Virus record (IMG/VR): IMGVR_UViG_3300021197_001233
Coordinates: 218 to 64,217 of that record
Reading direction: 5' to 3' (one strand)
Length of the DNA: 64,000 nucleotides
Origin: a virus
Taxonomy: Duplodnaviria; Caudoviricetes
Position numbers and translations under genes: made by a program. Below, one piece after another: positions 1 through 28,495 of the stretch. The notes under the pieces were generated by a model, which saw only the letters and a program-made list of their open reading frames with translations, searched no databases and had not been told where the DNA came from. Numbering within the stretch: position 1 is the stretch's first letter; each line of letters opens with the position of its first letter.

Positions 1-337
1 ATGACTCGGTGGAGCCACTGCGGTTGGACATATCAATCTCGATGATGCGGAACACCTCGACCGAGCAGTCGTCGCCATTGTCTGCCACCCAGTCATCGTG
101 GGTCATGTCAGATGGGACACAGGCGGCGTAGTCCTCGTACTCACGGGTCATCGTGACCTCAGCGTCACCTCCGTCTTGATGTTCGATACATACACATATC
201 TCATCCTTTCGGTAGTCGTCGAGGACTTGCTTGATGTGTTTCTCTGCGAACCCCCGCTTGGGGAAGAACTCGCAGGTGGTGTCGGAGTACCCTTCGAAGA
301 GTCCTGCGACAGCGTGGATTACTGCATATTGTTTCAT
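1..337 (-). CDS. early hypothetical protein (runs off window edge)
   Basis: ATG at 337 (MKQYAVIHAVAG...), open to position 1; preceded by promoter 372-404 and the leader motif at 348-357. Confidence 0.7.
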   Translation of the reverse strand, partial: MKQYAVIHAVAGLFEGYSDTTCEFFPKRGFAEKHIKQVLDDYRKDEICVCIEHQDGGDAEVTMTREYEDYAACVPSDMTHDDWVADNGDDCSVEVFRIIEIDMSNRSGSTES

Positions 338-371
338 GGTTATTGAATTGAAGTTTGTAAAAGTCTCGACA

Positions 372-427
372 CAAAGATAAGGAATTGATGTGGACAATTC
401 CAAATTTTTGTTGAAAAGATTTGTTAA
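372..427 (-). promoter_or_regulatory. Bacteroidota-type early promoter (TTTG-N21-TATCTTTG) with DnaA-box-like TTGTCCACA in the spacer
   Basis: + strand caaagata 372-379, tgtggacaa 389-397, caaa 401-404; 400-427 nearly identical to 2324-2351. Confidence 0.75.
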
Positions 428-431
428 AGGC

Positions 432-593
432 TTGGTTAGAAGGGAGGTTGGGATTCGAACACAACCGCCGTCCGACACAAAGGTCTTGGGAGTGGACGTG
501 CGCACCGACTGCGCTCCCTTGAAGAAGGTGAGGGGGCGGACTGACGTTTCAGCCACGCATACCCCCTCGTTGGTCAAACTTCAAACTAACCAA
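432..593 (-). ncRNA. candidate structured RNA: anti-leader hairpin, GC hairpin and tRNA-like domain
   Basis: Ends can pair (UUGGUUAG/CUAACCAA); hairpin 570-593; hairpin 530-568 (GAGGGGG/CCCCCUC); tRNA-like 440-520 with AAGGGAG/CUCCCUU stem and GUUCGAAUC T-loop. Confidence 0.6.
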
Positions 594-795
594 TACCGCT
601 TACGATGTCCATCGCTTTGGTCATCGCATAAGTTCGCTGTTGCATCCCCGTCCCTGCAAGCTGTGGGGATGGCAAGTACACGAAGGTAGAAAATGTTTTG
701 TCATTCTCCAACCCTTCGATTGAATATCCTTTATCACCTCGCATAATGGCATCTGCCACGGCGTTGGTGTGGTAAATCTTTTCTTGAAGTGTCAT
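586..795 (-). CDS. early hypothetical protein
   Basis: 69-aa ORF, ATGA-coupled to upstream gene. Confidence 0.6.
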   Translation of the reverse strand: MTLQEKIYHTNAVADAIMRGDKGYSIEGLENDKTFSTFVYLPSPQLAGTGMQQRTYAMTKAMDIVSGIG

Positions 796-1226
796 GATGT
801 AAGTGCTTCAGTTTCAATAAGTTCCTGTTCAATGATTTGCCTCATGATGTGACTGATGATGCGGTCTATGATGTCTGCGCTATCGGCCCAGTTGCAGTAC
901 CCTTGCGTAGTTTTCAACCAACCCCTGAACTCCTTGTGCAGGTTGTGTGGTGTGTGGTCGCGCAGGTAGTCCACCATGTCCTCGTAGTAGGAGTCCATCT
1001 TGTACTCGTCGTAGTAGGACTCGTCGCTTTCATAAACCTCCTCTGCTCTCCACAGGTTGCAGAACCCGTTGTTGTAGTAGTCGTAGCCGATTCGAGAGAT
1101 AGCACGGAGGGCTTCGGGAAGTCCGTCATCTGCCTCACCTGACGTAGGGATGAGTTGCTTCCATGCGGCATCGTACTGCTCTTGATACTTGCCCTCCTTG
1201 TCCCAATATGTTCCTGTCTTACTCAT
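792..1226 (-). CDS. early hypothetical protein (acidic)
   Basis: 144-aa ORF with leader motif at 1239-1248. Confidence 0.75.
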   Translation of the reverse strand: MSKTGTYWDKEGKYQEQYDAAWKQLIPTSGEADDGLPEALRAISRIGYDYYNNGFCNLWRAEEVYESDESYYDEYKMDSYYEDMVDYLRDHTPHNLHKEFRGWLKTTQGYCNWADSADIIDRIISHIMRQIIEQELIETEALTS

Positions 1227-1362
1227 TCTCTTGTTGTTTTGAAGTTTGATATTCGTCGTGTGCTTGCTCGACCGCTTTGTTCAGCATCTCTGCCTCTGCT
1301 CGATCGATTGCCTGCCCTTGCATACGGGCAAGCTGAATGATTACGTCTACGATGTCAGTCAT
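1219..1362 (-). CDS. small early hypothetical protein (47 aa, not in ORF track)
   Basis: MTDIVDVIIQLARMQGQAIDRAEAEMLNKAVEQAHDEYQTSKQQENE*, fills the gap in the minus-strand operon. Confidence 0.5.
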   Translation of the reverse strand: MTDIVDVIIQLARMQGQAIDRAEAEMLNKAVEQAHDEYQTSKQQENE

Positions 1363-1417
1363 GGTTGTCTCTGCTTGTTGGTGTAATTTCCATGGTCACG
1401 TCCCATATTATATTGTG

Positions 1418-1615
1418 TCATGTCAATGGTGTATGTGATTCCCAAAAGTGGATTTCTTCGTCGTGGATGCGGAAGCTCGTAGCAAATTTTAGCTCGTCGT
1501 TCCACACGCTGTCCAACCACACGCCGTGGTCGTCACGTGCTCCCATCACATGGGAGGCCTCGAACCCTTCTTTTTGCAGTGCTTTGACTGCACGTTCGCA
1601 TTGTTCTTGTGTCAT
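1418..1615 (-). CDS. early hypothetical protein
   Basis: 65-aa ORF, ATGA-coupled. Confidence 0.65.
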   Translation of the reverse strand: MTQEQCERAVKALQKEGFEASHVMGARDDHGVWLDSVWNDELKFATSFRIHDEEIHFWESHTPLT

Positions 1616-1926
1616 AGGTCAATGATTACGCCCTTGTCTTTGAGGGCATTGATGATGTAGTCAGGGAGTTCGAAGCATCCGTCGTACCCCACGAGTCGCA
1701 CGCTTCCGTCGTCGTCGTGCTCCGTTTCGAGCACACCCTCTGCATAGAATCGGTCGCCACCTGTGTCTAGGTCGTAGGTCTCGTACCATCCACCATATCC
1801 GTGGTCTGGGTCGATAGACACCTCGGTGTCCATGTCAACATTCTTTGCGGCATCAACGTCTACGTCGTAGGCGGTGCGCATTGATACGAATGGGAGTGTG
1901 TGCTTGAAGCTGTGTGTGAATTTCAT
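1612..1926 (-). CDS. early hypothetical protein
   Basis: Likely start MKFTHSF at 1926 (A-rich leader) within the 1612-2148 ORF. Confidence 0.7.
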   Translation of the reverse strand: MKFTHSFKHTLPFVSMRTAYDVDVDAAKNVDMDTEVSIDPDHGYGGWYETYDLDTGGDRFYAEGVLETEHDDDGSVRLVGYDGCFELPDYIINALKDKGVIIDL

Positions 1927-2023
1927 TGTGCTTTTGTTTCGTAGTGGTTCAACGTTTCGATGAGCAGTAGTCGTATGCAGGAGAGCACCATGCTCCACCC
2001 TGCGTATATCTGGATGGCTGTCA

Positions 2024-2272
2024 TCATTTTTTATCAAGCTTGAAGATGAGGTTGTTCTCTGCGTCGTTAGCGTAGTCGTCAAGCAGGTTGATGACCTCCT
2101 GAACGTGGTCAGGGTCTGCGTATTTCGTGTCTGAGAGCAGGGAGGCAAAGCCCTTCACATCCTTGGGCACAAGTCTGGCCGCTCGGTTGAGCTTGTTCAG
2201 GTTCGCACCGAAGTGGAAGTCATTGAGGAAGAGGACTGCGCGTCCTACGGGTTGTCCAAAGAAGTTGTCCAT
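2024..2272 (-). CDS. early hypothetical protein
   Basis: 82-aa ORF, first gene after promoter 2297-2328. Confidence 0.7.
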   Translation of the reverse strand: MDNFFGQPVGRAVLFLNDFHFGANLNKLNRAARLVPKDVKGFASLLSDTKYADPDHVQEVINLLDDYANDAENNLIFKLDKK

Positions 2273-2296
2273 GGTATTGGGGTTTGAAGTTCGGTG

Positions 2297-2351
2297 TAAA
2301 GATACAGCAATTTGTGGATGAATCCAAATTTCTGTTGAAAAGATTTGTTAA
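2297..2351 (-). promoter_or_regulatory. early promoter (TTTG-N20-TATCTTTA) with DnaA-box-like TCATCCACA
   Basis: + strand taaagata 2297-2304, tgtggatga 2313-2321, caaa 2325-2328; shares upstream repeat with 400-427. Confidence 0.7.
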
Positions 2352-2354
2352 TGC

Positions 2355-2519
2355 TCAGTAATCACGGGTCGTGATGCCGAAGCTACGCAGGTCGATGTAC
2401 ACGTCCTCGTCCCATGCGTCCTCGATGAGGCGCAACGCCTCCCTGTCGTCTGTGTCAGCGAAGTGTTCGTACGCGAGGACCTTTTCGTCTGCGCACAATT
2501 CTCTGAATGGATTAAACAT
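2355..2519 (-). CDS. early hypothetical protein
   Basis: Likely start MFNPFREL at 2519, leader motif at 2524-2533. Confidence 0.6.
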   Translation of the reverse strand: MFNPFRELCADEKVLAYEHFADTDDREALRLIEDAWDEDVYIDLRSFGITTRDY

Positions 2520-2553
2520 TTGCTTGAAGTTTGATGGTGTAACTATCTGATAG

Positions 2554-2700
2554 TCAGGCCTTCCAGACCTCATCCAACATCCAACCTTTCGTGCGTTCGA
2601 TGTGCTTGATGAAGTTTGCAATGTGGCCTCCGTCCTCGAAGTCGCGGGTCATTGACCACTTCTTCCCGCAGGACATAATGAATTGAATGGTAACTCTCAT
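2554..2700 (-). CDS. early hypothetical protein
   Basis: Start MRVTIQF at 2700, ATGA-coupled to upstream ORF. Confidence 0.6.
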   Translation of the reverse strand: MRVTIQFIMSCGKKWSMTRDFEDGGHIANFIKHIERTKGWMLDEVWKA

Positions 2701-2801
2701 TGGTCTAGTGTGTTGAGGACATAGTCCACGAGGGCGACGAACCCGCACCCGCTTGCGAATACTACCGCGAGCGATACGAGCAGGACTACCGCCTCGCTCA
2801 T
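2697..2801 (-). CDS. 34-aa hydrophobic membrane peptide (not in ORF track)
   Basis: MSEAVVLLVSLAVVFASGCGFVALVDYVLNTLDQ*, ATGA overlaps at both ends. Confidence 0.55.
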   Translation of the reverse strand: MSEAVVLLVSLAVVFASGCGFVALVDYVLNTLDQ

Positions 2802-2920
2802 GACTGCTTGTCTTTGAGGTTTGACACTGCATCCATGGCCATGCCTGTGAGCATGATGATGCCGACTACGCCGATGCCCGCCGCGAGCATGAGGTTGATG
2901 TTAAAAAGTAACTGAACCAT
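2798..2920 (-). CDS. 40-aa hydrophobic membrane peptide (not in ORF track)
   Basis: MVQLLFNINLMLAAGIGVVGIIMLTGMAMDAVSNLKDKQS*; leader motif at 2930-2941. Confidence 0.6.
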   Translation of the reverse strand: MVQLLFNINLMLAAGIGVVGIIMLTGMAMDAVSNLKDKQS

Positions 2921-2940
2921 TGTGTATGGGTTTGAAGTTT

Positions 2941-2990
2941 GATACAGACCCCCGAAGGGGTTTCGTCCATTCAGGACTCGTCAGTGTACC
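2941..2990 (-). ncRNA. hammerhead ribozyme (type I)
   Basis: GGUACA-CUGACGA-GUCC(UGAAU)GGAC-GAA-ACCCC(UUCG)GGGGU-C-UGUAUC: complete core, three stems, GUC cleavage triplet (cut between 2947 and 2946). Confidence 0.92.
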
Positions 2991-2992
2991 TG

Positions 2993-3172
2993 TCAGATGG
3001 GGTCGAAGTACCTGCGAATCTCCTGCTCCGCACGCTCGTCCTCTGCATCGTCCGCACCGATGAGGTCGGCCAACGTCATGTGTGCGTCTGCGAAGTGGGT
3101 GGACACGATGTCCTGCACGATGGTGGTGAGGGCTTGTACGCGCCCCTCATGCGCTTGCTTGGAAGTAGCCAT
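2993..3172 (-). CDS. early hypothetical protein
   Basis: Likely start MATSKQAH at 3172, downstream of promoter and leader motif 3177-3186. Confidence 0.7.
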   Translation of the reverse strand: MATSKQAHEGRVQALTTIVQDIVSTHFADAHMTLADLIGADDAEDERAEQEIRRYFDPI

Positions 3173-3192
3173 GGTGTTGAAGTTTGATGGTC

Positions 3193-3236
3193 GCAAGATA
3201 CGACCGAATTGTGGATAAAACAAATCTCTTTGTTAA
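3193..3236 (-). promoter_or_regulatory. early promoter (TTTG-N20-TATCTTGC) with perfect DnaA box TTATCCACA
   Basis: + strand gcaagata 3193-3200, tgtggataa 3210-3218, caaa 3221-3224. Confidence 0.7.
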
Positions 3237-3255
3237 GTCGCTGTGAGTCAGGAAG

Positions 3256-3870
3256 TTACAAGACGTCCTCGGCAGTCACGCCTCCGTCCATCATGTCCAT
3301 GTTCACCGCACGCACCATGTCCATCACGTCCGTGTACCCCTCATCGCGCATTACCGCGTATGGTGTGGGTGGCGTGTAGTCTGCCGCGTGCTGTGGGCGG
3401 GGCTTGGGCGCAGGTGCGTCAACCTCCGTGCGTGTGCCGAATGGCGAGGCCTTGGTGGGCTTGTCGTCGCACACGACCTCGGTCTTGCGCACGTTCCGCT
3501 TGGCGCTCTCGCGGTTGCTCAGGCGTTGTGCCTGTGCCTCCAACTTGTCGTTCTTGGTCTTGCGCTTGGTCTTGCGCTTCGTGGGCTTGGGTGCGGGAGG
3601 CGTGGTGGCCTCCTGCACGTCCACGGGGGTGTACGTGTTCGCGCTCTGGCACGCATCCATGACATCGAACATTTGCTCCATCGTCATCCCGTACTGCTCG
3701 CACAGCACGTCCGCACGTGACTGCTTCGCAGTCTTGGCTTTGGCTTTGGCTTTGGGCTTGGCCGCTTGCTCCTGGGCGAACTTGGCTTTGTTCGCGGCAC
3801 GGCGCTCGGCTCGGGTCAACTTGCGCCCCGTGTCGGGGCAGTGTGTGGGGGTGTAGGTCTTTGCAGACAT
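3256..3870 (-). CDS. first early gene; basic, Lys/Ala/Pro-rich protein (possibly nucleic-acid binding)
   Basis: Likely start MSAKTYTP at 3870; KPKAKAKAK and KRKTKRKTK tracts; promoter TATCTTTG at 3921-3928; leader motif 3881-3892. Confidence 0.75.
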   Translation of the reverse strand: MSAKTYTPTHCPDTGRKLTRAERRAANKAKFAQEQAAKPKAKAKAKTAKQSRADVLCEQYGMTMEQMFDVMDACQSANTYTPVDVQEATTPPAPKPTKRKTKRKTKNDKLEAQAQRLSNRESAKRNVRKTEVVCDDKPTKASPFGTRTEVDAPAPKPRPQHAADYTPPTPYAVMRDEGYTDVMDMVRAVNMDMMDGGVTAEDVL

Positions 3871-3920
3871 GGTGTAAGAAGTTTGAAGTTTGCTCGGCCC
3901 GACTCTCGAACCGATGCCAA

Positions 3921-3952
3921 CAAAGATAGGTAAATCAATCCCTGATGTCAAG
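3921..3952 (-). promoter_or_regulatory. early promoter (TTGA...TATCTTTG)
   Basis: + strand caaagata 3921-3928 matches Bacteroidota -7 TAnnTTTG. Confidence 0.65.
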
Positions 3953-4610
3953 CCAACGGATGTTAACGTCAGCAATGACGGGGGATGCAGAGCCAAATTT
4001 ATACGAGGTTATGTCCATTGTGTCACCCCATGAGCGGGGATGATTGGTTGCAGTAAAGGTATAGGTGAGGTATTGTCCCACCTTCGGGTAGAGCTACATG
4101 TCTGCGGTCACCTGATGCGATGATGCAGGTAACGATGCGTAAGTGACTGGGGGACAAGCGATTGCAATCTCGGAAGTAAATCTCCGTAGTATGGCAGAAA
4201 CTAGGGAGGGGGGTTTGGAAATGTAATTTCCAAAAGATTTGCCTCCGTACATATATACATATAATCCCCCCTATGTGTGGTTCTGATCGTTTTTTACGAC
4301 CAAACCCGAAAAAACCGCCGATATCCGCAAAAATTTTCACGCGGTATTTTTTGATTGACTCCATCTAACCCCTCATAACTGACTGATTTAGAGTAAGAAG
4401 CGGTATTTAGCCTCTAGTATAGCTTGAGTCTTGACTTTTAAAGATTTCTGTTATAACTTTGCTATACAATCAAGTGCAAAACAGTCGAAATAGTAGGGTG
4501 TGTGTACACACATTACACCATCCGATCTAGATTTAACTGTTAAATACGGGATAGCTGTGCCATGTGGGGATATTACCGACTAATCGGTACAGGGGGACAG
4601 CATATTTGGG

Positions 4611-4618
4611 TATATTTG
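4611..4618 (+). promoter_or_regulatory. late promoter element TATATTTG (representative of about 12 copies)
   Basis: Copies at 4611, 4919, 6150, 11224, 13107, 15699, 18627, 19622, 24604, 26802, 53400; TAATTTTG at 37842; matches Bacteroidota -7 consensus. Confidence 0.8.
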
Positions 4619-4622
4619 CCTC

Positions 4623-4913
4623 ATGCTACTGATAAAGATCTCCGAGAGCGGTTATCGCAGAGACAGTGAGGACCAGTTCAACGACCACAATGTGATTATG
4701 ACGGGCTGCATCTCTATGGATGCGGTAGATTACCCCGTTGTAGGTATGGACGAGATAGGTAACATCAAGATTATGATGCCTGGGTCCAAGCACAACTTTG
4801 AAGGGGAGAGGGTACTGGAGGTACCGCTTAAGAATGACGAGTACAACTTCATGAGTCAGGACGACATCTATGAGCTTGTTCGCATTAAGGCTGCAGAAAC
4901 GGGTTTCTCTTAA
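4623..4913 (+). CDS. conserved Bacteroidota-phage hypothetical protein
   Basis: GYRRDS...ISMDAVDYPVVGMDEIG...MMPG...FEGERVLEVP resembles a domain I recall from crAss-like/flavobacterial phages. Confidence 0.7.
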   Translation: MLLIKISESGYRRDSEDQFNDHNVIMTGCISMDAVDYPVVGMDEIGNIKIMMPGSKHNFEGERVLEVPLKNDEYNFMSQDDIYELVRIKAAETGFS

Positions 4914-4931
4914 TCCCGTATATTTGTACTC

Positions 4932-5672
4932 ATGGACATCATCAAGGATATCGGGAAATCTCTGAACTTTAAAGAGCGCTATGACGATCTTGAGCGTACA
5001 GGGATGGAGGATTATGATAGAAAGGAGTGCAAGGAGCTACGTGAGCTAAGTAAGAGCGGGGCACCGCTTTCAGAATCACAGAAAGAGACCCTTCACTACT
5101 GTGATACTATCAGGGGTGAGCGTCAAAGGGCTGCTATGAACCTCGGAACATCAGCCGCGAAGATTGGGGTGGGGGCATTTACTGGGAATGTTAATATGAT
5201 TACTCAAGGCGTCGGTGATGCTGGAGGATATATCATGTCTGAGGCCCAGGAGGTAGACGGCCCTAACGATGGCATTGGCCAAAAGATCGGTAAGGAGGAT
5301 TACATGAAGCTAGGTGCCGATGTCGTAAGCGGTGTTGGTGCATACGCCATGGGTAAGCAAGGAGCTGGTGGTGGCGAGGGTGGTGGCGTTCAGGATGTGG
5401 TGAATCAGGCAACGGGTGATACTGCTGGAGGCGCGGGGAATACATTTAATATGATGCAGACCCTTATGCAAAACCCTCAGTTTATGCAGATGATGCAGCA
5501 GCAGATGCAGGGTCAGGAGGGAGCTCAGAATGCATTTCAGACAGGTGGCGTACAGGGGGGGCTGAACTTCTTGTCTAACTACGGCGTCAATCAGAACGCT
5601 AATGGATCAAAACTAAAGCGGTCAACACGTGACCACGACTACATCAAAGGAAACACTAGAGGCTATAAATAA
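4932..5672 (+). CDS. Gly/Gln-rich protein, putative internal virion protein
   Basis: 246 aa, glycine-zipper-like segments, own promoter. Confidence 0.7.
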   Translation: MDIIKDIGKSLNFKERYDDLERTGMEDYDRKECKELRELSKSGAPLSESQKETLHYCDTIRGERQRAAMNLGTSAAKIGVGAFTGNVNMITQGVGDAGGYIMSEAQEVDGPNDGIGQKIGKEDYMKLGADVVSGVGAYAMGKQGAGGGEGGGVQDVVNQATGDTAGGAGNTFNMMQTLMQNPQFMQMMQQQMQGQEGAQNAFQTGGVQGGLNFLSNYGVNQNANGSKLKRSTRDHDYIKGNTRGYK

Positions 5673-6142
5673 TGGCTACACTTACAACAACTATTAAAGA
5701 AGAGCTAACGCTCAACGGCATCGAGAGGGGCTCAACAAACACCCTATCTATTACTGGGGTCAATGAGGTGTTGCAGCGTATGGTAACATGCCCTGCCAAC
5801 CAGGACACAACGATAGCCACATTCAAGGCCGCTGTGAATACATCTGAAGGCGCTCTCGACCTTGACAATGTCAAGTACATCAGGGTGACTAATCTCGATA
5901 GCACCAATGAATTGGTTCTGTCTTTGCAGATCTCTGCGGCTGAGAATGGAACGGCGGATGCATCTACAAGCATCTTGGTGGCTGCGGGTAGAAGCTTTAT
6001 CATGGGGTCTCCACATGACGGCATTGCTACGGACGATGACTCCACTACTGTCATCACCGACACAAACCTTAATGACCTGGAGAGTCTGATTGTGGACCCC
6101 AAGACTAGCAGCATAACAGTAGAGCTATTTATCGCAAGTTAA
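5672..6142 (+). CDS. small beta-rich virion structural protein
   Basis: MATLTTT start; KYIRVTNLD...LVAAGRSFIM motif related to 19649 and 20059 proteins. Confidence 0.65.
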   Translation: MATLTTTIKEELTLNGIERGSTNTLSITGVNEVLQRMVTCPANQDTTIATFKAAVNTSEGALDLDNVKYIRVTNLDSTNELVLSLQISAAENGTADASTSILVAAGRSFIMGSPHDGIATDDDSTTVITDTNLNDLESLIVDPKTSSITVELFIAS

Positions 6143-6161
6143 TACCGATTATATTTGCATC

Positions 6162-7790
6162 ATGCCAGGACTAAGAAAAATAATGCAGCGGGGAACAAAC
6201 AACCCCCTGTTCTTTCAGACTCTTCCATCTCAAACTCCGAAGCAGGTAAAGGAAGAGAAGATTCGGAAAAAGATAGATGAGGTGTACGGTAAGGGATATC
6301 AGGCCCCTTACGATGTCGATGGCGCTTACGGCCAGGAACCAAAAAGGAAGTCTGGCAACGCTGGCTTCAGAATGGTGAAAAACAATCTAACAGGAAGACA
6401 GATGAAGATAGCAAAGCAGACTGCCCCGTTTGACGAGATCAATGGGGCCGACTTTACGAAGCTTCGCGAGGCGCTCATGGGTAGGGGCAGGGCCAATGCC
6501 AAGGTATATCAGGATGGTACTGGTTCAGGAGATCGAACGACCACTTCAGAGTACTTTGATCAGAGACGGGGTCAACAAGCACAAGCTCGTCGCGATAGTA
6601 TGTCTTCTGGCCAACGCCTTGGTGAGGGTGTGTTCTCTCAGGCTGTTCAAAGCATGGATAGCAAAGCTCAGAGTGCCGTTGTTCCGTTTGCAAGAGAGAT
6701 TGAAGGTGCCCTCGCCAATGAGAGTAAGTGGGCCGAGGATTTTGCTGAAGAGATTTCTGCAATGGGCTACAGTATGGATGATCTTAAGTCTGGCAAAGTC
6801 CCTGCTCACACTATTGCCTCTGTAACTGGAAGAAGCGGTCAAGCCGCCAAGTTGCTGAGAAGTTCGATGGTTAACCAAGGCGGTCTCGATATGAAGGATG
6901 CTAATTATCTGATTACGGGGCTGTCTAAGTTTGGCAGAAACATTGAGGACGGTATTATCAACGTCTCTGACATGGACAACATGATGGGTGAACTTGGGTA
7001 TACTTCTGATGATGCGGCATTTATGGGTGACGCAATATCTAAAGGCGGCCTGGGCGTAAGTCAGTTTAATACTATGCGAATGGAGGAGCTTGGCGAGGGT
7101 GGCGGTCAGAGAGATGTTTCTGGTGGTGTAGAGGCCTTCCCGAGCGCTAATGAGTTTAGAGCTTCTCAAAAGAAGAATACGAGTAGGGATGGCTCCTACA
7201 AAGGAGGGTATGGTAAAAACAACGTAACGTTTGGTAGAGAGAAGTTTAGAGAGACTGACCAGACAATGAGGCCTGACGAGGATTTTCCAGCACAGGAGCT
7301 GCCACAGGAGGTGGTGCAGACTCAGCCAGATCCGATTGATCCAATTCAGGGCATGACTCCCGATCCTCAGCCCGTTGAAACACCAAAGCAGATTATTGAG
7401 ACGACCCCGCCGCCTCAGTTTGAGGAGAATCCTGATCCAGTTGTAGAGGAAAAGCCAGTCATCCGCGGCTGCATGGACCCAAAGTCCACGAATTACAACC
7501 CTAAGGCCACTCAGGATGATGGATCTTGTGCATACCCACAGGAAGAAGAGGAGACTCCATCAACTGGTAGATTTGGGCCTGCGTTGGATCTGTACGACTT
7601 CGAGCCGATGCCCTCAGATAAGTTGGGCACCGTGGACACTGGCGCTATGGGTAGATACAGCGATGCGATGCTTGGCTCTCAAATGGCAGAAAGAGCTGGT
7701 GTTAATAGGATGGGATCTGCCCTCCGCGCTAAGCTTAACACCATGGGGTCGAGTAACCCTAGAGGCATGCGGTTTGTAAAGAGACGATAA
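6162..7790 (+). CDS. low-complexity protein, putative internal virion protein, with EF-hand-like and GCxDP Cys repeat
   Basis: LTGRQMKIAK...DEINGADFTKLR; GCMDPKSTNYNPKATQDDGSC; Pro/Gln/Glu-rich linker. Confidence 0.7.
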   Translation: MPGLRKIMQRGTNNPLFFQTLPSQTPKQVKEEKIRKKIDEVYGKGYQAPYDVDGAYGQEPKRKSGNAGFRMVKNNLTGRQMKIAKQTAPFDEINGADFTKLREALMGRGRANAKVYQDGTGSGDRTTTSEYFDQRRGQQAQARRDSMSSGQRLGEGVFSQAVQSMDSKAQSAVVPFAREIEGALANESKWAEDFAEEISAMGYSMDDLKSGKVPAHTIASVTGRSGQAAKLLRSSMVNQGGLDMKDANYLITGLSKFGRNIEDGIINVSDMDNMMGELGYTSDDAAFMGDAISKGGLGVSQFNTMRMEELGEGGGQRDVSGGVEAFPSANEFRASQKKNTSRDGSYKGGYGKNNVTFGREKFRETDQTMRPDEDFPAQELPQEVVQTQPDPIDPIQGMTPDPQPVETPKQIIETTPPPQFEENPDPVVEEKPVIRGCMDPKSTNYNPKATQDDGSCAYPQEEEETPSTGRFGPALDLYDFEPMPSDKLGTVDTGAMGRYSDAMLGSQMAERAGVNRMGSALRAKLNTMGSSNPRGMRFVKRR

Positions 7791-7810
7791 CAATCCCAGT
7801 TTACTGGGTA

Positions 7811-7838
7811 AAAAAAAGGCCCCTTTCGGGGCCTTTTC
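7811..7838. terminator. bidirectional intrinsic terminator
   Basis: aaaaggcccc-tttc-ggggcctttt between convergent genes. Confidence 0.85.
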
Positions 7839-7850
7839 TGTTTATCTGCA

Positions 7851-8309
7851 TCACTTGTTCCACAGTGCCTGCGACAGCAATGGTATCTCTGTGCTACCAA
7901 CAGTATGAGTGCTAAGGTTTAGAATGTGGTCGTCAGTAACCATTGTCTCGTAGGGACAGTCCTCTTCTAGGTAGTAGTCGAGGTAGTCCTCATTCATTAC
8001 TACGTATGATCCGAAACAAAGCGGCTTTCCCTCCTTGAAGGGTACGATAACGTATACGCCTGGATCGGTGTATGTGAAGCATGCATTCTCTGCAGGAAGG
8101 TCTGTCACGATTTCAAGGTCTTGAGTGAAAAACCCTTGCGGTGGGACGAACTTAACTCCGTTCTTGGGAATGACATCTTCTACAACGAATACTGCAAACA
8201 TGTCTGCAGAGTCTACGTTTGAGGCGAAGTTTTCGGTGAATGTCCGTGAAAGCTGCGCTGATGCGGTAGTCGCGATCAGTACGGCTAATCCTGCAAGTAA
8301 GTTCTTCAT
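7851..8309 (-). CDS. secreted protein (Sec signal peptide)
   Basis: MKNLLAGLAVLIATTASA/Q: AxA followed by Gln, the Bacteroidota Q-rule. Confidence 0.75.
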   Translation of the reverse strand: MKNLLAGLAVLIATTASAQLSRTFTENFASNVDSADMFAVFVVEDVIPKNGVKFVPPQGFFTQDLEIVTDLPAENACFTYTDPGVYVIVPFKEGKPLCFGSYVVMNEDYLDYYLEEDCPYETMVTDDHILNLSTHTVGSTEIPLLSQALWNK

Positions 8310-8310
8310 C

Positions 8311-8490
8311 TTATTTGATTGTTTCGTTCTGTCCTGGCAGAGGTGAATTTAAGTGATTGATCGCAATGATCATCTCTTCGATCTGGGCTCCGCTGTAACG
8401 CTTATGCAAGCGGTTGTTCTTTGACGCCTCGTCGTCCACGAAAAGGCAACCGACAATTACGAGGGCTGCTGCTGCAAGTGTGTACTTCAT
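8311..8490 (-). CDS. 59-aa putative lipoprotein/membrane protein (not in ORF track)
   Basis: MKYTLAAAALVIVGC (lipobox-like IVGC)...NETIK*, stop 1 nt before the next ATG. Confidence 0.55.
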   Translation of the reverse strand: MKYTLAAAALVIVGCLFVDDEASKNNRLHKRYSGAQIEEMIIAINHLNSPLPGQNETIK

Positions 8491-8669
8491 TTGTGATTGG
8501 ATTGAATTTTGTAACTTTGTCTAAATCGCTGATCTCAGTATATGGAGAACTTTCGATACTCACAAATTTGGCTTGCAAAAAAACCTTAACGACTTGAAAA
8601 AGCCGTACTTTAACGCCAAGAAGAAACGAAAGGACTCCGCTGTGGAGAACGAAAAACGAAGACTTCATA

Positions 8670-9149
8670 ATGAAGCTATCAGAAAATCTATCACTCGCCG
8701 AATGCCTCCGCAGCAAAACAGCAACGAGGCTCGGGATAAACAATGAGCCAGATGATGAATGGGTTGTCGAAAATCTCAGAGCGGTTGCAGAGCGGGTATT
8801 TCAACCTTGTCGCGACCATTTCGGAGTTCCTATATACGTGTCGTCAGGGTATCGCTCGCCTGATCTCAACCTTGCGATCGGTGGGAGCCACCGCAGTCAG
8901 CACGTGGAAGGAAGAGCACTCGACCTCGATTGCGATGTATACGGCTCTATCACAAACTCTGAGCTCTTCAACTACATTAGAGAGAATCTGGAGTTCGATC
9001 AAATGGTGTGGGAGTTTGGTGATGACGATAATCCTAATTGGGTACACGTCTCTTATGTTCATGGCGGACATAATCGCAAGAGGTGCCTACGCGCTCGCAG
9101 GGATGATAACAACAAGGTTTACTACGAAGTAATTTACAAGCAACTATGA
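8670..9149 (+). CDS. peptidase M15A family endolysin
   Basis: SGYRS...SQHVEGRALD...WVHVS zinc-binding motifs. Confidence 0.88.
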   Translation: MKLSENLSLAECLRSKTATRLGINNEPDDEWVVENLRAVAERVFQPCRDHFGVPIYVSSGYRSPDLNLAIGGSHRSQHVEGRALDLDCDVYGSITNSELFNYIRENLEFDQMVWEFGDDDNPNWVHVSYVHGGHNRKRCLRARRDDNNKVYYEVIYKQL

Positions 9150-9280
9150 AGGAGGAAGATTTCGACGACATCAGCTTTTTGGATCAGGACAAACTGAAGA
9201 AGCAAGAGGCTAAAATTGAGTCTGGTGATATAACATGCAACCTCGACAGCCCCGAGGATTGCGAAAGCTGCAGCGGATAA
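9146..9280 (+). CDS. 44-aa acidic peptide ending CNLDSPEDCESCSG (RNR-alpha tail-like; not in ORF track)
   Basis: ATGA-coupled to endolysin and TAATG-coupled to next gene. Confidence 0.75.
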   Translation: MKEEDFDDISFLDQDKLKKQEAKIESGDITCNLDSPEDCESCSG

Positions 9281-10089
9281 TGTTAGGCCTAGGATTAAGT
9301 TTAAACTCCTCTGTACAGGAGTCGTCCGTCTCCAGGCTTCCATCCTACTCTAATAGCCACAACATTTTTGTTGACGGAACAGAGGCCGTAGGTATCCTTG
9401 ACTCAACCGACATCACGAGTATCTTTGGAGGCAATTACACCTATTCGTTTTGGGTTTATGATACTGCTTATAATACTTCTTATGCTTGCGGAACCAAGAA
9501 GAGCACAACTCCTACTTATGAAATTGGCGTTCGATTCTTAAACCTTGGCGTTATGTATCTTCAAGTATTTCATGAGGCCGATGGCACAGGGGGTAGCGCT
9601 TTCTATAATGTCGGCTCATCCCTCACGAATTCGAATTGGCATCAGATTACCGTTACATGCACGGCGGGGGCAACGGGTTCTGACAACGCAACAATAAAGA
9701 CGTATCTCAATGGAAGCCTTGTGGGTACGAACACCAGTGGCCCAACGAAGGATAAGCAAGATGCTTTTGCTGCCACAAGTGGATCCCTGTTTGGGGTCGG
9801 GGCTAGATATAGTGACTTGAACTCCCCAACCTTCCACACAAGCTCTTACTTTGATGAGTTTGCATTCTGGAGCGCGGTCTTGGATGCCGATGCTGTTTCG
9901 GCTATATACAACAGTGGGGACTCCATAGACCTGTCTGTGGACAGTGGGGACTATGACCGTTCCTCTGACCTTGAAAGCTGGTATAGATTTAATAACGACT
10001 TTACCGACAGTCAAGGAAATTCAACTACAGGCACAGCTGTTGGAGATCCCCTTTTCGGTTCATCTGACAATCCACCAGGAACCCCATGA
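9280..10089 (+). CDS. LamG/concanavalin A-like domain virion protein
   Basis: Start MLGLGLSL at 9280; YTYSFWV, WHQITVT, TYLNG, FDEFAFWSAVL. Confidence 0.85.
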   Translation: MLGLGLSLNSSVQESSVSRLPSYSNSHNIFVDGTEAVGILDSTDITSIFGGNYTYSFWVYDTAYNTSYACGTKKSTTPTYEIGVRFLNLGVMYLQVFHEADGTGGSAFYNVGSSLTNSNWHQITVTCTAGATGSDNATIKTYLNGSLVGTNTSGPTKDKQDAFAATSGSLFGVGARYSDLNSPTFHTSSYFDEFAFWSAVLDADAVSAIYNSGDSIDLSVDSGDYDRSSDLESWYRFNNDFTDSQGNSTTGTAVGDPLFGSSDNPPGTP

Positions 10090-10337
10090 ACAAGTACGTA
10101 ATAGTAAGCAAGTCGGAGTTAGACGACCCCAACACCACAATAGATTTTTCTCAACTGTTGTATCCAGATAAGGACAAGTTGAGGTATAGTATTGCTGGCG
10201 ATAAATCAGTCATTAAGTACGAGACTCCGATTCCTAGTTTCTTTTCTGGCAAGACTACATATACCTTATCTCAGATAACCCCAATACTTGAGGGTAGTGA
10301 GTGGACCGAGGTTATAACAGAGGACGATATACTTTAA
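10086..10337 (+). CDS. conserved phage hypothetical protein
   Basis: IDFSQL...LRYS..G.KSVIKY...EWT, a type often seen after LamG genes in marine phages. Confidence 0.7.
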   Translation: MNKYVIVSKSELDDPNTTIDFSQLLYPDKDKLRYSIAGDKSVIKYETPIPSFFSGKTTYTLSQITPILEGSEWTEVITEDDIL

Positions 10338-10756
10338 TCTTCTAGTTCCCCGTAGAACCTCTGCACCAGAAGCCTTCCTTTTTGCGTTAGAGAGTATCTA
10401 ACTCTATAGTTGAACTTAGTCTCATCCCTAAAAAGGTGATCCTCATACTTTTGTGAGGGGGTGAGCTTGTCAAAGTATTTGTACACGTAACCAGCCTTAA
10501 CTAGTTCGTATACAATGCGTTCGCCTATTTTTTTGGCAGAAGAATACCCGTAATCCTTGGCCGCATAAGACAGAGTCCAGAACTCTAAATCGTAGGCCCA
10601 CAGCATGAACATGAGCTCTTTTTCGAAGATGTCTCTCTTCACGCAGAACTCATTTACACTCTTTCTCAGATACTTAAGGTGATTGTTTTTTACGTACCTT
10701 TGGTTAAGCTTAGAGAACTCGCGGAACATCTTCCCCCTTGATTTCTTTGCTGGCAT
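10334..10756 (-). CDS. winged-helix (MarR-like) DNA-binding protein
   Basis: ELVKAGYV...RYSLTQKGRLLV; own TATCTTTG promoter overlapping the start of the divergent gene. Confidence 0.7.
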   Translation of the reverse strand: MPAKKSRGKMFREFSKLNQRYVKNNHLKYLRKSVNEFCVKRDIFEKELMFMLWAYDLEFWTLSYAAKDYGYSSAKKIGERIVYELVKAGYVYKYFDKLTPSQKYEDHLFRDETKFNYRVRYSLTQKGRLLVQRFYGELED

Positions 10757-10780
10757 TGAAATAAATTATACCGCAAAGAT

Positions 10781-11071
10781 ATGGAAGACGAGGAATTTTT
10801 GTACAGAATCAGGGAGTTGGCGGTTGCAATGGACGACCTCGTGGACGAATACGGGGTCAGAGATCGACTAATGTCAATCATGATTATCGGTGTGACCGAG
10901 CAGAACGAGCTAGGTGACACCAACATGAAGGCGGTGTATAGCTACAACCTCCACAACAAGGAGGAGCTGGATGAACTAATTGAATTTATGCAAGACACAT
11001 ACGTTGAGAAAGAGGACGAAGGACCAGATCTGGATGACCTACTCAACGGTCTTGATATATCGCTAAACTAA
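10781..11071 (+). CDS. acidic hypothetical protein
   Basis: 96-aa ORF in late operon. Confidence 0.7.
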   Translation: MEDEEFLYRIRELAVAMDDLVDEYGVRDRLMSIMIIGVTEQNELGDTNMKAVYSYNLHNKEELDELIEFMQDTYVEKEDEGPDLDDLLNGLDISLN

Positions 11072-11072
11072 A

Positions 11073-11312
11073 ATGGAGGGACTTATTAGGAAGATCGTCG
11101 TGGGTAGAGACCCAAAGGACGCTATGGCATATTATGTTGGCATGAGAGCAGGTAAGGGCAAGGTTAGCGCCATTGTTCTTGACCACGAGCACCTCCATAG
11201 GCACGGATCAAAAAGATATCTTGTATATTTGCAAGACGAGGATGATTCTCAGGTGCTGTGGAAGTCCATAGACAGCATGCCCTGCATGGTGGAGTTTGAT
11301 CTAAATTTTTAA
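11073..11312 (+). CDS. conserved phage hypothetical protein
   Basis: LIRKIVVGRDPKDAMAYYVG...WK...MPCMVEFDLNF. Confidence 0.75.
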   Translation: MEGLIRKIVVGRDPKDAMAYYVGMRAGKGKVSAIVLDHEHLHRHGSKRYLVYLQDEDDSQVLWKSIDSMPCMVEFDLNF

Positions 11313-11314
11313 TT

Positions 11315-11563
11315 ATGTCACACAAAAGCTATCCTAACGGGGAGTCTATCCCTCACTCGCTTCCAGACGCATACAAAGCAGCAACCACAAACGCAAAGTG
11401 CTCTAACTGCAACTTCTTTACGAGCAACCAGTCGTACTGCACGAAGTGGTCGGCACCTGTTAGGGGTAACTACGTTTGTGCCGCATGGAAGGCAAGGCAG
11501 CCTCAGAACAGAACATCATTTTCAAATACAACAAATAGACCTAGAAATGTCAGAGGATACTAA
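11315..11563 (+). CDS. HiPIP-like four-Cys protein
   Basis: Y-x8-CSNC-NFF-x6-C-x12-CAAW pattern. Confidence 0.55.
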   Translation: MSHKSYPNGESIPHSLPDAYKAATTNAKCSNCNFFTSNQSYCTKWSAPVRGNYVCAAWKARQPQNRTSFSNTTNRPRNVRGY

Positions 11564-11723
11564 AAAGAAGCCAGAGGGCCTCGGTGATACTATCGCGGAG
11601 ATTACTAGAGCCACCAGAATCAAGAACATTGTTGACCATATCAGCAATAAGACAGGAAAGGACTGCGGTTGCGCGAAGAGGCAGAAGGCGCTCAATAAGA
11701 TGTTCCCATACAGTAACAAGTGA
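11547..11723 (+). CDS. small conserved phage protein (GLGDT...CGC motif)
   Basis: Start MSEDTKKK; GLGDTI...DCGCAKRQKALNKMFPY. Confidence 0.7.
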   Translation: MSEDTKKKPEGLGDTIAEITRATRIKNIVDHISNKTGKDCGCAKRQKALNKMFPYSNK

Positions 11724-12325
11724 AGACATTTGACTTGTTTATCGTTGAACTGGAAAAAACGGTCAACGATACAATTACCACCGACTCAGGTCTTGAGCTC
11801 TACATTGAGACAAAGTTTGAGAACGGTGAGTTCGATCACAGGGTCACTCATGGGCCAGTTGTGGCTGTACCTTTTAAGTATGACACTGGGGTCAGCGTCG
11901 GGGATACTCTATACTTTCACCACCTTGTCGTCATGCAGGAGGGGCAAGTACTTACTGGTGTCGATAATCACTACTTTGTTCAGTACGGCAAGCAAGCTAT
12001 TGGTAACCAGGCGTTTGCGTACAAAAGCAAAGAGACTGGAGAGATAAAGTGCCTTGGTGGATGGACACTTCTTGAACCTATCGAAGAGGAACCTAAAGAC
12101 TCTGGAGTCATTGAGGTTGTAAGTCTTAAGGATAAGCTCCCGACAAAGGGCCGCGTCGTTTATACGTGCGGAGACGGTACAGCTGATGACGTGGTTGTAA
12201 ATCCAGGCGATGTGGTGGGGTTCAAAGAGAACCGAGATTACAGAATCAAAATTGACGGTGTGGAGATGTACAGAACCCGCGCCGAAGATCTTCTATATGT
12301 CGAAGAAGAAGTTTACAACGATTGA
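11720..12325 (+). CDS. GroES-like co-chaperonin (two tandem GroES-like units)
   Basis: GPVVAVP...VSVGDTLYF and KGRVVY.G...VNPGDVVGF...IKIDGVEMY...EDL. Confidence 0.7.
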   Translation: MKTFDLFIVELEKTVNDTITTDSGLELYIETKFENGEFDHRVTHGPVVAVPFKYDTGVSVGDTLYFHHLVVMQEGQVLTGVDNHYFVQYGKQAIGNQAFAYKSKETGEIKCLGGWTLLEPIEEEPKDSGVIEVVSLKDKLPTKGRVVYTCGDGTADDVVVNPGDVVGFKENRDYRIKIDGVEMYRTRAEDLLYVEEEVYND

Positions 12326-12587
12326 CGCGGCTCAGAGCCTTATGCACAGCATGGAGGTCGCCATTAACAACATGATTGACGAGGTAAAGAAGCCTGTCGA
12401 TCCAGATGCGGGTGGAGCTGCTAGAAAGGCCGAGCTTCAATCCATTAAGCAGACGGCCACGGATTGTAAGGAGCTGCTGGTTGAACGCCAGCGTCTTGAA
12501 CAAATGATCAAAGACCTAAGGGACAATGGACAAATCGAACAAGCCAAAGACTACTCAGGAGGTTTTGCTGAAAGATTCTCTAAATGA
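12297..12587 (+). CDS. probable terminase small subunit
   Basis: Helical 96-aa protein ending GFAERFSK, upstream of the large subunit; positional inference. Confidence 0.45.
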   Translation: MSKKKFTTIDAAQSLMHSMEVAINNMIDEVKKPVDPDAGGAARKAELQSIKQTATDCKELLVERQRLEQMIKDLRDNGQIEQAKDYSGGFAERFSK

Positions 12588-12668
12588 TTGGAAGAAGATA
12601 GTTTGGCAATACAGCAGGACCGACTATAGATTCTGGGAAGATTCTTGGAATAAAGATTTTGAGGACTA

Positions 12669-13013
12669 ATGGCCTATAAGGACCCAGAGGACCAGAAGAA
12701 GTTTTCCGCCGCACACTACGAGAAGTATAAGGATCAGTATAAGTCTAGATCTAAAAAGAGGAACAGAAATCAACGCAAGTGGGGTCGGGAGTTTATTCAA
12801 AGGGTTAAAAAAAATCTTCCGTGTGTGGATTGCGGTGAATCAAATCCAGTTGTTCTAGAATTTGACCACGTTTGCGGCGAAAAGCACCATAACATATCTG
12901 ACATGGTGAATCAATCCTACTGTATAGACACAATAAAAAAGGAAATTCGGAAGTGTGAAGTTAGGTGCGCTAACTGCCACAGAAAGAAGACCTTTGAAAG
13001 GAGAAACACATAG
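12669..13013 (+). CDS. HNH endonuclease
   Basis: CVDC...LEFDH...KCEVRCANCH. Confidence 0.88.
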   Translation: MAYKDPEDQKKFSAAHYEKYKDQYKSRSKKRNRNQRKWGREFIQRVKKNLPCVDCGESNPVVLEFDHVCGEKHHNISDMVNQSYCIDTIKKEIRKCEVRCANCHRKKTFERRNT

Positions 13014-13090
13014 CCGCAAGTATCCCCTCAAGCTTATACCTTGTAGAAAGGGTAACTGGTCACATGTGGGTTCGAGTCCCACCTTGCGGA
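13014..13090 (+). tRNA. atypical tRNA-Ile(UAU)-like gene with rearranged D-arm
   Basis: Acceptor CCGCAAG/CUUGCGG, CAAG-CUUAUAC-CUUG anticodon arm, GUGGG-UUCGAGU-CCCAC T-arm; no canonical D-arm. Confidence 0.7.
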
Positions 13091-13118
13091 CAAGGTGAAC
13101 GTGTCGTATATTTGCGAC

Positions 13119-13373
13119 ATGCGCGTCAAGAAAAAACGCAACTACAAGAGAGAGTACCGACTCTTCCACAAAAGCAAGAACGCTAAGAAGGCTCGCGCTG
13201 GAAGAAATTTACGGCGCAGGAGGGCCGAAAGGGAAGGCAGGGTCTCTAAGGGTGACGGCAAAGATGTTCATCACTATACGGTCGGAGGGGCAACTAAGAC
13301 CAGGGTCGAGCCAGCCTCAGTAAATAGAGGCAGAACCGAGGCCTCTAGGAGGCCAGGGAGTAATAGAAAATAA
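13119..13373 (+). CDS. basic HNH-like phage protein
   Basis: Start MRVKKKRNYKREY after promoter 13107; KGDGKDVHH...SVNRG. Confidence 0.7.
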   Translation: MRVKKKRNYKREYRLFHKSKNAKKARAGRNLRRRRAEREGRVSKGDGKDVHHYTVGGATKTRVEPASVNRGRTEASRRPGSNRK

Positions 13374-13379
13374 ACGTAT

Positions 13380-13453
13380 GCACCTGTAGCTCAACAGGAT
13401 AGAGCAGCGCACTTCTAATGCGCAGGTTTCAGGTTCGAGTCCTGACAGGTGTA
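13380..13453 (+). tRNA. tRNA-Arg(UCU)
   Basis: Canonical cloverleaf GCACCUG/CAGGUGU, GCGCA-CUUCUAA-UGCGC, GGUUCGAGUCC. Confidence 0.95.
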
Positions 13454-27611: not shown

Positions 27612-28495
27612 TGGCTATACCTAGAAACGGTCATAACAACGGTCACAATTACATCTCATTGAGAGAGGTTATTGCTGACTACATGCTCACCATGGACGAG
27701 GACGACTACGCCTCATCTGCGACAGAGTACGCCATAAGGAATATGGCCCTGCGTGGTATTAGAGAGTTTGGCTTTGATGTCCAGCCATCTGTTAGGTCTT
27801 TGAAAAGAACTTTGCAGTCCAATAACACAATTATCCTACCAGATGATTTTGTTGATGTGATTAAGATCGGCACCGTGGATGAGAACGGTATTGTTAGAGC
27901 CTTTGCCGAAAACAAAAACCTGAACATCTCTCAGGCATACAACACTGACGGGGATATTGTAAATCAAAGCCTACAGCTTGGACTTGACGATCATCGGAGC
28001 AAAGGCAATAGAAGGCCCATACCAGACAACAAACTTCAAAACAGAAAGGATGATCTGACTGCTACTAATTCAGAGGCCAATAACGAAGATATCGACTGGT
28101 ACATCTTTGAGAACTATCTGTATCAAGGAAGTCTTGGCAGAATGTATGGGTTAGGCGGTGGAAAGCTTAGAGGTACATACCGCATCAACTACGATCAGAA
28201 CAGAATTGAGATTGACTCTGAGGCTGGCGTAACAGAGGTCGTTATAGAGTACATCTCTGACTCGGCGAGGTCTACGGACCCTGTGGTTCACGTATACGCT
28301 GAGGAGGCTCTTAGGGCCTTCATATACTATAAGATTGTAGAGCGCAAGAGCTCTGTCCCAGCTGGAGAAAAGCAGCGGGCTAGACAGGAGTATTACAACG
28401 AGCGAAGAAAGGCTCGTGCTAGACTCAGCAACTTCTCGAAGACTGAGGCCATGAATGTAATTAGAAGAAACTTTAAGCTAGTACCCAAGTACTAA
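27611..28495 (+). CDS. tail ring/tubular protein
   Basis: RGIREFGFD...LPDDFVD...VIEYISD...VHVYAEEALRAFI. Confidence 0.7.
   Translation: MAIPRNGHNNGHNYISLREVIADYMLTMDEDDYASSATEYAIRNMALRGIREFGFDVQPSVRSLKRTLQSNNTIILPDDFVDVIKIGTVDENGIVRAFAENKNLNISQAYNTDGDIVNQSLQLGLDDHRSKGNRRPIPDNKLQNRKDDLTATNSEANNEDIDWYIFENYLYQGSLGRMYGLGGGKLRGTYRINYDQNRIEIDSEAGVTEVVIEYISDSARSTDPVVHVYAEEALRAFIYYKIVERKSSVPAGEKQRARQEYYNERRKARARLSNFSKTEAMNVIRRNFKLVPKY

Follow-up and report, generated by a model that had tools for sequence, protein, structure and literature searches.

A type I hammerhead ribozyme joined to an early-gene leader in a marine phage group

Phage hammerheads and the junction at 2990-2941

Tandem hammerhead ribozymes that flank genes in prophages cleave in vitro and in E. 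coli, and cutting of long phage transcripts into single-gene or operon-length messages has been proposed (Perreault et al. 2011, PMC3088659; available text). According to the same text, the haloviruses HF1 and HF2 have a hammerhead situated 13 nt ahead of a start codon, and a 5' end has been mapped no more than 3 nt away from the cut. This ribozyme class is established to leave 2',3'-cyclic phosphate and 5'-OH ends according to the available sections of a 2019 review (PMC6765202), which also describe the roles of hammerheads in bacteria and phages as still largely unknown. What these parts of PMC3088659 and PMC6765202 say agrees with the original prediction, a first reading of the DNA studied here, which held that hammerheads are known in phages and that their role there is poorly understood. 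Type I hammerheads located before ORFs in fungal and plant RNA viruses have been linked to translation (PMC13725137, available text). Our literature search found no paper linking hammerheads with Flavobacterium or Cellulophaga phages; the Dataset S1 alignments of PMC3088659 may include copies.

The DNA analysed is a 64,000-nt stretch (the window) that makes up nearly all of a 64,217-bp IMG/VR virus record rated complete. The large terminase encoded there shows 46.8% identity to its counterpart in an uncultured podovirus, 39.6% to the elemo phages of Flavobacterium and 34-37% to Cellulophaga phages. Because of this likeness to Flavobacterium and Cellulophaga phages, a member of the Flavobacteriia is the probable host. 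Flavobacterium mRNAs have no Shine-Dalgarno sequences and favour an A at -3 (PMC6847099, available text), and the phage leaders described below, being without Shine-Dalgarno sequences, fit such a host. The window also holds a tRNA (13380-13453, +, 69 bits), a 1015-aa protein with a glucosaminidase domain (38775-41822, +) and two giant ORFs, one of 3001 aa with an LPD38 domain (41834-50839, +) and one of 2452 aa (28495-35853, +) for which there was no Pfam match and no match among solved structures (PDB).

A string of small genes forms an early block on the minus strand, from ~3950 down to 350. The hammerhead lies in this block, with the following features around it.

3240-3173, minus: promoter-like region (TTAACA-17-CACAAT, 9/12), small hairpin and leader motif upstream of gene B
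3172-2993, minus: gene B, upstream early gene of 59 aa, with its stop 2 nt before the hammerhead
2995-2993, minus: TGA stop of this 59-aa ORF
2992-2991, minus: CA between the stop codon and stem I
2990-2941, minus: type I hammerhead ribozyme, 50 nt, from direct reading and a descriptor
2990-2985, minus: stem I 5' strand, GGTACA
2984-2978, minus: core CTGACGA (RNA CUGACGA; conserved CUGANGA)
2977-2965, minus: stem II hairpin GTCC-TGAAT-GGAC, 4 bp with a 5-nt loop, first pair G-C
2964-2962, minus: core GAA
2961-2948, minus: stem III hairpin ACCCC-TTCG-GGGGT, 5 bp with an A-U closing pair and a UUCG loop
2947, minus: cleavage nucleotide C17 (triplet GUC), predicted cut between 2947 and 2946
2946-2941, minus: stem I 3' strand, TGTATC, pairing with 2990-2985 in an open stem I of 6 bp
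2946-2921, minus: predicted 26-nt 5' leader of the cut message, containing the leader motif AAACUUCAA (2940-2932)
2940-2932, minus: AAACTTCAA, adjoining the stem I 3' strand
2931-2921, minus: ACCCATACACA, between AAACTTCAA and the ATG at 2920
2920-2798, minus: gene C, 40-aa hydrophobic peptide, first cistron of the predicted cut message, Kyte-Doolittle 2.2 (2.22)
2801-2697, minus: gene D, 34-aa hydrophobic peptide, start overlapping the gene C stop (ATGA), Kyte-Doolittle 2.5

Every position of the conserved core (C3 U4 G5 A6 N7 G8 A9, G12 A13 A14, A15.1-U16.1 and H17) is present at 2990-2941, and the three helices, of 6, 4 and 5 uninterrupted bp, contain zero core-adjacent mispairs; consensus-core criteria for the class are given in the Methods of PMC3088659 (available text). 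Stem I is open and stems II and III end in loops, which is the type I topology, and the minimum-free-energy fold contains stems I and II complete and 4/5 pairs of stem III. The sequence and the covariation in relatives bear out the prediction of a complete minus-strand hammerhead of type I between two early genes. The coordinates given with that prediction were all right, namely the 2-nt gap after the stop of ORF 2993-3172, the start of the 3' product at 2946 and the 26-nt leader. We consider a real hammerhead confirmed and its activity very probable, cleavage being predicted from the sequence. The description of the leader motif as abutting the ribozyme was not quite exact: the 12-nt motif ATCAAACTTCAA shares the last 3 nt of stem I. 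Read directly, the predicted 26-nt leader contains no Shine-Dalgarno sequence and has an A at -3. The two tiny membrane peptides expected downstream are found as ORFs of 40 and 34 aa (genes C and D), each with a strongly hydrophobic 19-residue stretch and each of identical length in a relative, G001.

Our own descriptor, which demands the core, the closing A-U pair, H17 and three uninterrupted stems, gives exactly one site on both strands of the window, even with stems of 3/2/2 bp. Among 1000 dinucleotide-preserving shuffles of the window, none reached stems of at least 6/4/5 bp and 125 yielded some relaxed match (stems at least 3/2/2). An Infernal-type check with a hammerhead model, proposed along with the prediction, succeeded in part: Rfam Hammerhead_1 (RF00163) aligned end to end over the full model, but at 22.6 bits against a gathering score of 34 (E-value 0.0023 on 231 nt, 1.5e-4 per genome), so that by this score alone the element is no member of the family. 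At the gathering threshold, Rfam lists only a tRNA and not the hammerhead, and the RAGATH-1 hammerhead model (RF03152) gave 18.3 bits (E = 0.81) against a gathering cut-off of 56.3 bits. RF00163 scores are also low, 14-24 bits, for the listed hammerheads of four relatives. A covariance model of the family described below (R1), built from a 47-copy alignment that includes the window's own copy, scores this copy at 70.8 bits. Run over the whole window with filters off, R1 found no second hammerhead, the next match scoring 11.5 bits.

Four marine metatranscriptome runs from one study contain parts of 1500-4500 as short low-depth contigs, given without strand or ends. A contig of 391 nt runs uncut through 2699-3089 without a single difference, and represents either uncleaved RNA or DNA carried into the library. 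Stretches that these runs leave uncovered were given no weight. The summed depth reaches 78-646 at 3722-3822, where the listed pieces are contigs of 31-38 nt at 3732-3763; this jump is probably due to a word shared with other organisms.

Conservation of the ribozyme-leader unit

The promoter-like region at 3173-3240 is conserved in the relatives G001 and G002 and is likely the start of the transcript that carries the hammerhead, where it would act as a promoter. Promoter-like sites were called with a Bacteroidetes promoter consensus. A hairpin, GGTCG...CGACC, lies within the region at ~3189-3205 (minus), just before the gene B leader. It reads GGTTG...CAACC in G001, a compensatory change (compare L122 5717-5800), and the hairpin may form a 5' stem-loop of the primary transcript. 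The available text of the phi14:2 paper (bioRxiv 10.1101/2020.03.07.982082) contains no early-promoter motif for comparison.

In the early block, CAAACTTCAA stands 4-13 nt ahead of the ATG of most genes, and this leader follows promoter-like sequences at 3951-3923, 2328-2297 and 404-372. Ahead of the gene C leader there is the hammerhead, and ahead of the leader of gene F (ATG 2519) neither a hammerhead nor a promoter-like site. The 12-mer ATCAAACTTCAA occurs seven times in the window with at most 1 mismatch, compared with 0.44 expected (0/100 shuffles reach 7). Exact copies are found on the minus strand at 1239-1250, 2524-2535, 2932-2943 and 3177-3188, all copies fall within 357-3894, and the 12-mer heads most early genes with or without an upstream hammerhead or promoter-like site. 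The promoter-like regions of two early genes also share a 39-nt direct repeat, 90% identical, at 389-427 and 2313-2351; on the minus strand each copy contains TTTG, 20-21 nt and then TATCTTTG or TATCTTTA.

Using the 204-aa early protein (3870-3256) as query, we found three related contigs, G001, G002 and G003, which carry hammerheads just downstream of this protein and on the same strand. There is one in G001, one in G003 (at the contig edge) and four within 1.6 kb in G002, compared with the single copy of the window. The stems of the relatives differ in sequence yet pair, e.g. GGCACA/TGTGTC, GCGC/GCGC, GGCT/AGCC and ACGCC/GGCGT. In all four related genomes (the window and G001-G003) a hammerhead comes after gene B, which itself exists in two unrelated forms, the window protein being shared with G002 and an unrelated 56-aa protein being present in G001 and G003. 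The gene that follows varies as well, with two hydrophobic peptides in the window and G001 versus a 58-aa protein in G002. Two extra small ORFs, each followed by a hammerhead and a leader, stand in G002 between the conserved first promoter and gene A, and gene F has a hammerhead in G002 and none in the window or G001. Since the junction stays constant while the flanking genes differ, and since G002 has these extra units, the hammerhead and leader behave like a cassette junction. A search for relatives through the 542-aa protein at 6162-7790 found none. Among GenBank phages, megablast of window positions 1-12000 and blastn of the 75-nt hammerhead plus leader gave no match, and the hammerhead-leader cassette had 0 matches in species-representative bacterial and archaeal genomes, hence no sign of prophage copies.

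We also scanned viral contigs for the core and closing pair together with the leader AAACTTCAA, leaving the three stems free, a pattern into which direct joining to AAACTTCAA is built for all copies recovered. The scan returned 89 stretches, 78 of them distinct. All 15 inner pairs form in 42 of these, and the other 36 are A-rich, pair at chance level and have no hammerhead fold, with none intermediate or near-perfect. In the final alignment, 47 distinct family copies from viral contigs keep the fold with 98.8% of cells paired, a percentage that is partly built in because copies had to pair in order to be picked by the descriptor. The split into two groups (42 perfect, 36 unrelated) and the variety of pair types are independent evidence. 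Both sides vary in 10/16 pairs (109 cells) across the 47 copies, with changes in all three helices; 0/500 shuffles reach the observed covariation score, and slid controls are 24-53% paired. Two copies, L208:1940-1989 and L197:1864-1915, were added to the alignment by hand, and three hammerheads in L019 (2) and L077 (1) were left out as belonging to other lineages, with long stem III inserts, that had passed a loose leader filter. Nearly all family copies run into the leader AAACUUCAA, with an ATG ~10 nt further on. One further element, at 10944-11013 of L007, has the family stem I, core and stem II and then breaks off right after GAAAC; from its sequence it looks like a truncated relic.

Stem I of the window hammerhead is a plain 6-bp helix without an internal loop, and we recognised none of the known loop-loop tertiary motifs in this element. 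An A at -1, directly before stem I, is found in 47/47 family copies and in 77/116 hammerheads outside the family, and a C at -2 in 33/47 family copies. Invariant positions of the family alignment further include a U at both ends of loop II and the AAA with which the leader opens. These conserved residues, namely the A at -1, the leader's AAA behind stem I and the two U of loop II, are suggestive in that they could supply a stem I-loop II contact, the kind that rapid hammerhead cleavage at cellular Mg2+ requires; the A at -1 may then be part of the ribozyme, as the partner of loop II.

The phage group is abundant: a closely related terminase is present in at least 600 viral contigs and is 77-95% identical among the 80 listed. 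Seven relatives of at least 50 kb were chosen by terminase among these 80, and a hammerhead is present in 3/7 of them and in 2/4 of those at least 90% complete, so that the element appears common but dispensable. Ten other near-complete relatives, picked for having a hammerhead, carry one or two copies each (two in 4/10). We also considered whether the leader 10-mer is absent along with the hammerhead, and rejected this as the picture is mixed: the hammerhead-less genomes G014, G015 and G016 are without it and G018 has one copy, and two of three hammerhead-bearing genomes (G017 and G019) are also without the exact 10-mer.

A copy is also present in cultured phages. R1 matches Flavobacterium phage vB_FspP_elemoB_14-3B (NC_062741.1) with 45.1 bits at 17213-17270, minus, in a block of small early genes, where the unannotated hammerhead is followed by AAACTTTAAAAACAATACTAAG and then an ATG. 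The annotated start of gp69 (17232, GTG) falls inside this hammerhead, and an in-frame ATG at 17190 sits 29 nt after the predicted cut. Judged by the sequence, ATG 17190 is more likely to be the gp69 start than GTG 17232, which would mean that the hammerhead corrects a gene start in at least NC_062741.1. Sixty-eight records of cultured Flavobacterium phages have this region with at least 95% identity; they leave the copy unannotated and name the host strain, and the function can therefore be tested directly in the laboratory. Among the five cultured-relative records searched with R1, only elemoB has a match, with none in MW202828.1, Cellulophaga phi13:2, Cellulophaga phi38:1 or Tenacibaculum Gundel_1.

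A wider scan, in which the core and a single stem II sequence were fixed and the downstream side was left free, reached at least 120 viral contigs. Of the 120 listed, 102 contain type I hammerheads by our descriptor. Most of the remaining 18 look like type III, a few tens of nt before an ATG (L006, L011, L016, L028, L059, L073, L081, L103 and L120 are examples). With duplicates removed, the matches listed comprise 134 distinct type I copies at 82 loci. Among these, an ORF start (ATG, at least 30 codons) lies 15-45 nt past the cut in 100/134, at a median of 26 nt, which equals the distance in the window; random positions in the same loci have such a start in 498/2680 cases. An upstream stop lies within 20 nt in 52/134 of the copies listed. 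The first 5 nt of the 3' product, that is of the stem I 3' strand, are identical in 50.6% of 85 within-phage pairs compared with 5.4% between phages, and within phages stem II is identical in 14% and stem III in 15% of pairs. A shared start of the 3' product together with divergent stems II and III supports the new 5' end as the constant part. The suggestion that the ribozyme standardises the 5' end thus gains support of a comparative kind, from the ORF starts at 15-45 nt and from the 50.6% versus 5.4% sharing. An unusually unstructured cut message, which we also considered, is not supported: 45-nt 3' products are not less structured than coding controls (mean z -0.09 versus -0.30, p = 0.2), with the same outcome against composition-matched shuffles. 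One unrelated 66.6-kb viral contig, L004, has seven type I hammerheads within 4.6 kb (8690-13234), each followed by an AGGAGG-like ribosome site and, where the 30 nt shown reach one, by a start codon.

Proposed function and alternative explanations

Our preferred reading, to which we give a probability of roughly 0.6, is that of a working type I hammerhead in a minus-strand early operon that cuts the polycistronic mRNA between cistrons and leaves a fixed 5'-OH end and leader on the downstream message. Once RNA polymerase has passed 2941, on what is presumably the transcribed strand, the 50-nt element would fold and cut itself after C2947, during or soon after transcription. The transcript starting upstream of gene B would thereby be split into two messages. 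The gene B message would keep its stop codon, and its 3' end would be the folded ribozyme (stems II and III), bearing a 2',3'-cyclic phosphate; the message for genes C, D and onward would begin with 5'-OH UGUAUC and AAACUUCAA, 26 nt before the AUG. Type I is the only topology that leaves almost no ribozyme on the downstream RNA, here only 6 nt, and with so short a remnant every cistron behind such an element would receive, independently of the upstream sequence, an identical short leader that has no Shine-Dalgarno sequence. Most of the ribozyme of RiboJ, a synthetic insulator, by comparison stays on the downstream RNA. The element would act in effect as a natural expression insulator for small early-gene cassettes. 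It may also influence stability or translation of the messages; a stabilised downstream message was the other role put forward with the original prediction.

More speculatively, hammerhead and leader could together form a portable self-insulating junction by which abundant marine Flavobacteriia phages insert and swap small early genes behind one promoter, each cistron receiving the same 5' end, as part of a wider design rule; we put this forward as a tentative idea that may well prove wrong. The rule for phage type I hammerheads may be a 6-bp stem I flanked by A, a cut ~26 nt before the start and the same 5' end throughout a given phage. If true, a defined 5' terminus would count for more in bacterial gene expression than has been assumed.

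Two other roles for cleavage have to be weighed against this one. The cut might mainly free a 5' end for ribosome loading on the next cistron, with an effect on translation and not on stability or insulation. The leader, with no Shine-Dalgarno sequence and an A at -3 as in Flavobacterium mRNAs (PMC6847099, available text), and the median of 26 nt between cut and start among the matches listed are both in keeping with this. However, many of the scanned phage hammerheads precede AGGAGG-type sites, so that the arrangement is not tied to hosts without Shine-Dalgarno pairing, and several early genes, gene F at 2519 for example, carry the leader with neither a hammerhead nor an obvious promoter. We regard this explanation as unlikely. 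Cleavage could instead switch expression off or trigger decay: the resulting 5'-OH and cyclic-phosphate ends would mark one or both halves for rapid degradation, as with glmS, and so limit expression of the flanking early genes. glmS cleavage does lead to degradation by cellular RNases, and ribozyme processing could yield transcripts of differing stabilities (PMC6765202, available text). Here, though, the cut spares the stop of the upstream ORF and leaves the downstream ORF with a complete conserved leader, as if both messages were to be preserved, and the sequence gives no hint of a regulated core, which leaves a decay switch distinctly improbable.

The remaining explanations make cleavage incidental or deny it. 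Hammerhead and leader might be kept mainly as repeated recombination junctions for early-gene cassettes, with cleavage a by-product. The varying genes around a preserved junction, the extra ORF-hammerhead-leader units behind the same promoter in G002, the abrupt end of the L007 hammerhead after GAAAC and the presence of the element in only 3/7 close relatives (of at least 50 kb, among the 80 listed) would all agree with such a linker. A linker needs identity, yet stems II and III diverge while their pairing and 13 core positions persist; this is the pattern expected from selection on catalysis, and we give the recombination explanation little chance. That the element is a chance look-alike or an inactive relic could be argued from the Rfam score under the gathering cut-off and from the uncut contig in the RNA library, but 0/1000 shuffles are as good, 42 independent copies pair perfectly and none partly, and compensatory changes are found in all three helices, all of which makes this extremely improbable.

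Comparison with described systems

The RNA-virus ribozymes of PMC13725137 resemble the window element in being type I with a long helix III, in preceding ORFs and in being tied to the expression of the ORF that follows (available text). They differ, according to the same text, in a helix II of 0-2 or 6-8 bp, compared with the usual 4 bp and 5-nt loop in the window, in having no loop-loop contacts and in belonging to eukaryotic RNA viruses. RiboJ-type synthetic insulators share the logic of normalising 5' UTRs, but RiboJ is engineered and has an added 23-nt hairpin after the ribozyme (PMC7536230, available text).

The HF1/HF2 variant likewise lies in an early region with a start codon close behind it (13 nt away, against 26 nt from the cut in the window), and the 5' end mapped near its cut points to activity in vivo. 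It differs from the window element, whose core is canonical, in its variant core, its archaeal host and a suggested salt-dependent control (PMC3088659, available text).

With the bacterial and phage type I hammerheads (RF00163; PMC3088659, available text) the window element shares the core, the open-stem-I junction and an intergenic site on the coding strand. Unlike the tandem sets described there, it is a single copy in the window, falls below the Rfam cut-off and has a stem I without an internal loop. Unlike the hammerheads in the available text of that paper, it is fused to a fixed leader, AAACUUCAA, which also heads early genes that have no ribozyme. As the arrangement in phages was already described by Perreault et al. 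(2011; available text), the window element adds a member to a known class. It brings to that class the constant joining of the ribozyme to a leader found across the lineage, its cassette-like behaviour and a phage and host available in culture, in a family that belongs to an abundant marine phage group with a closely related terminase in at least 600 viral contigs.
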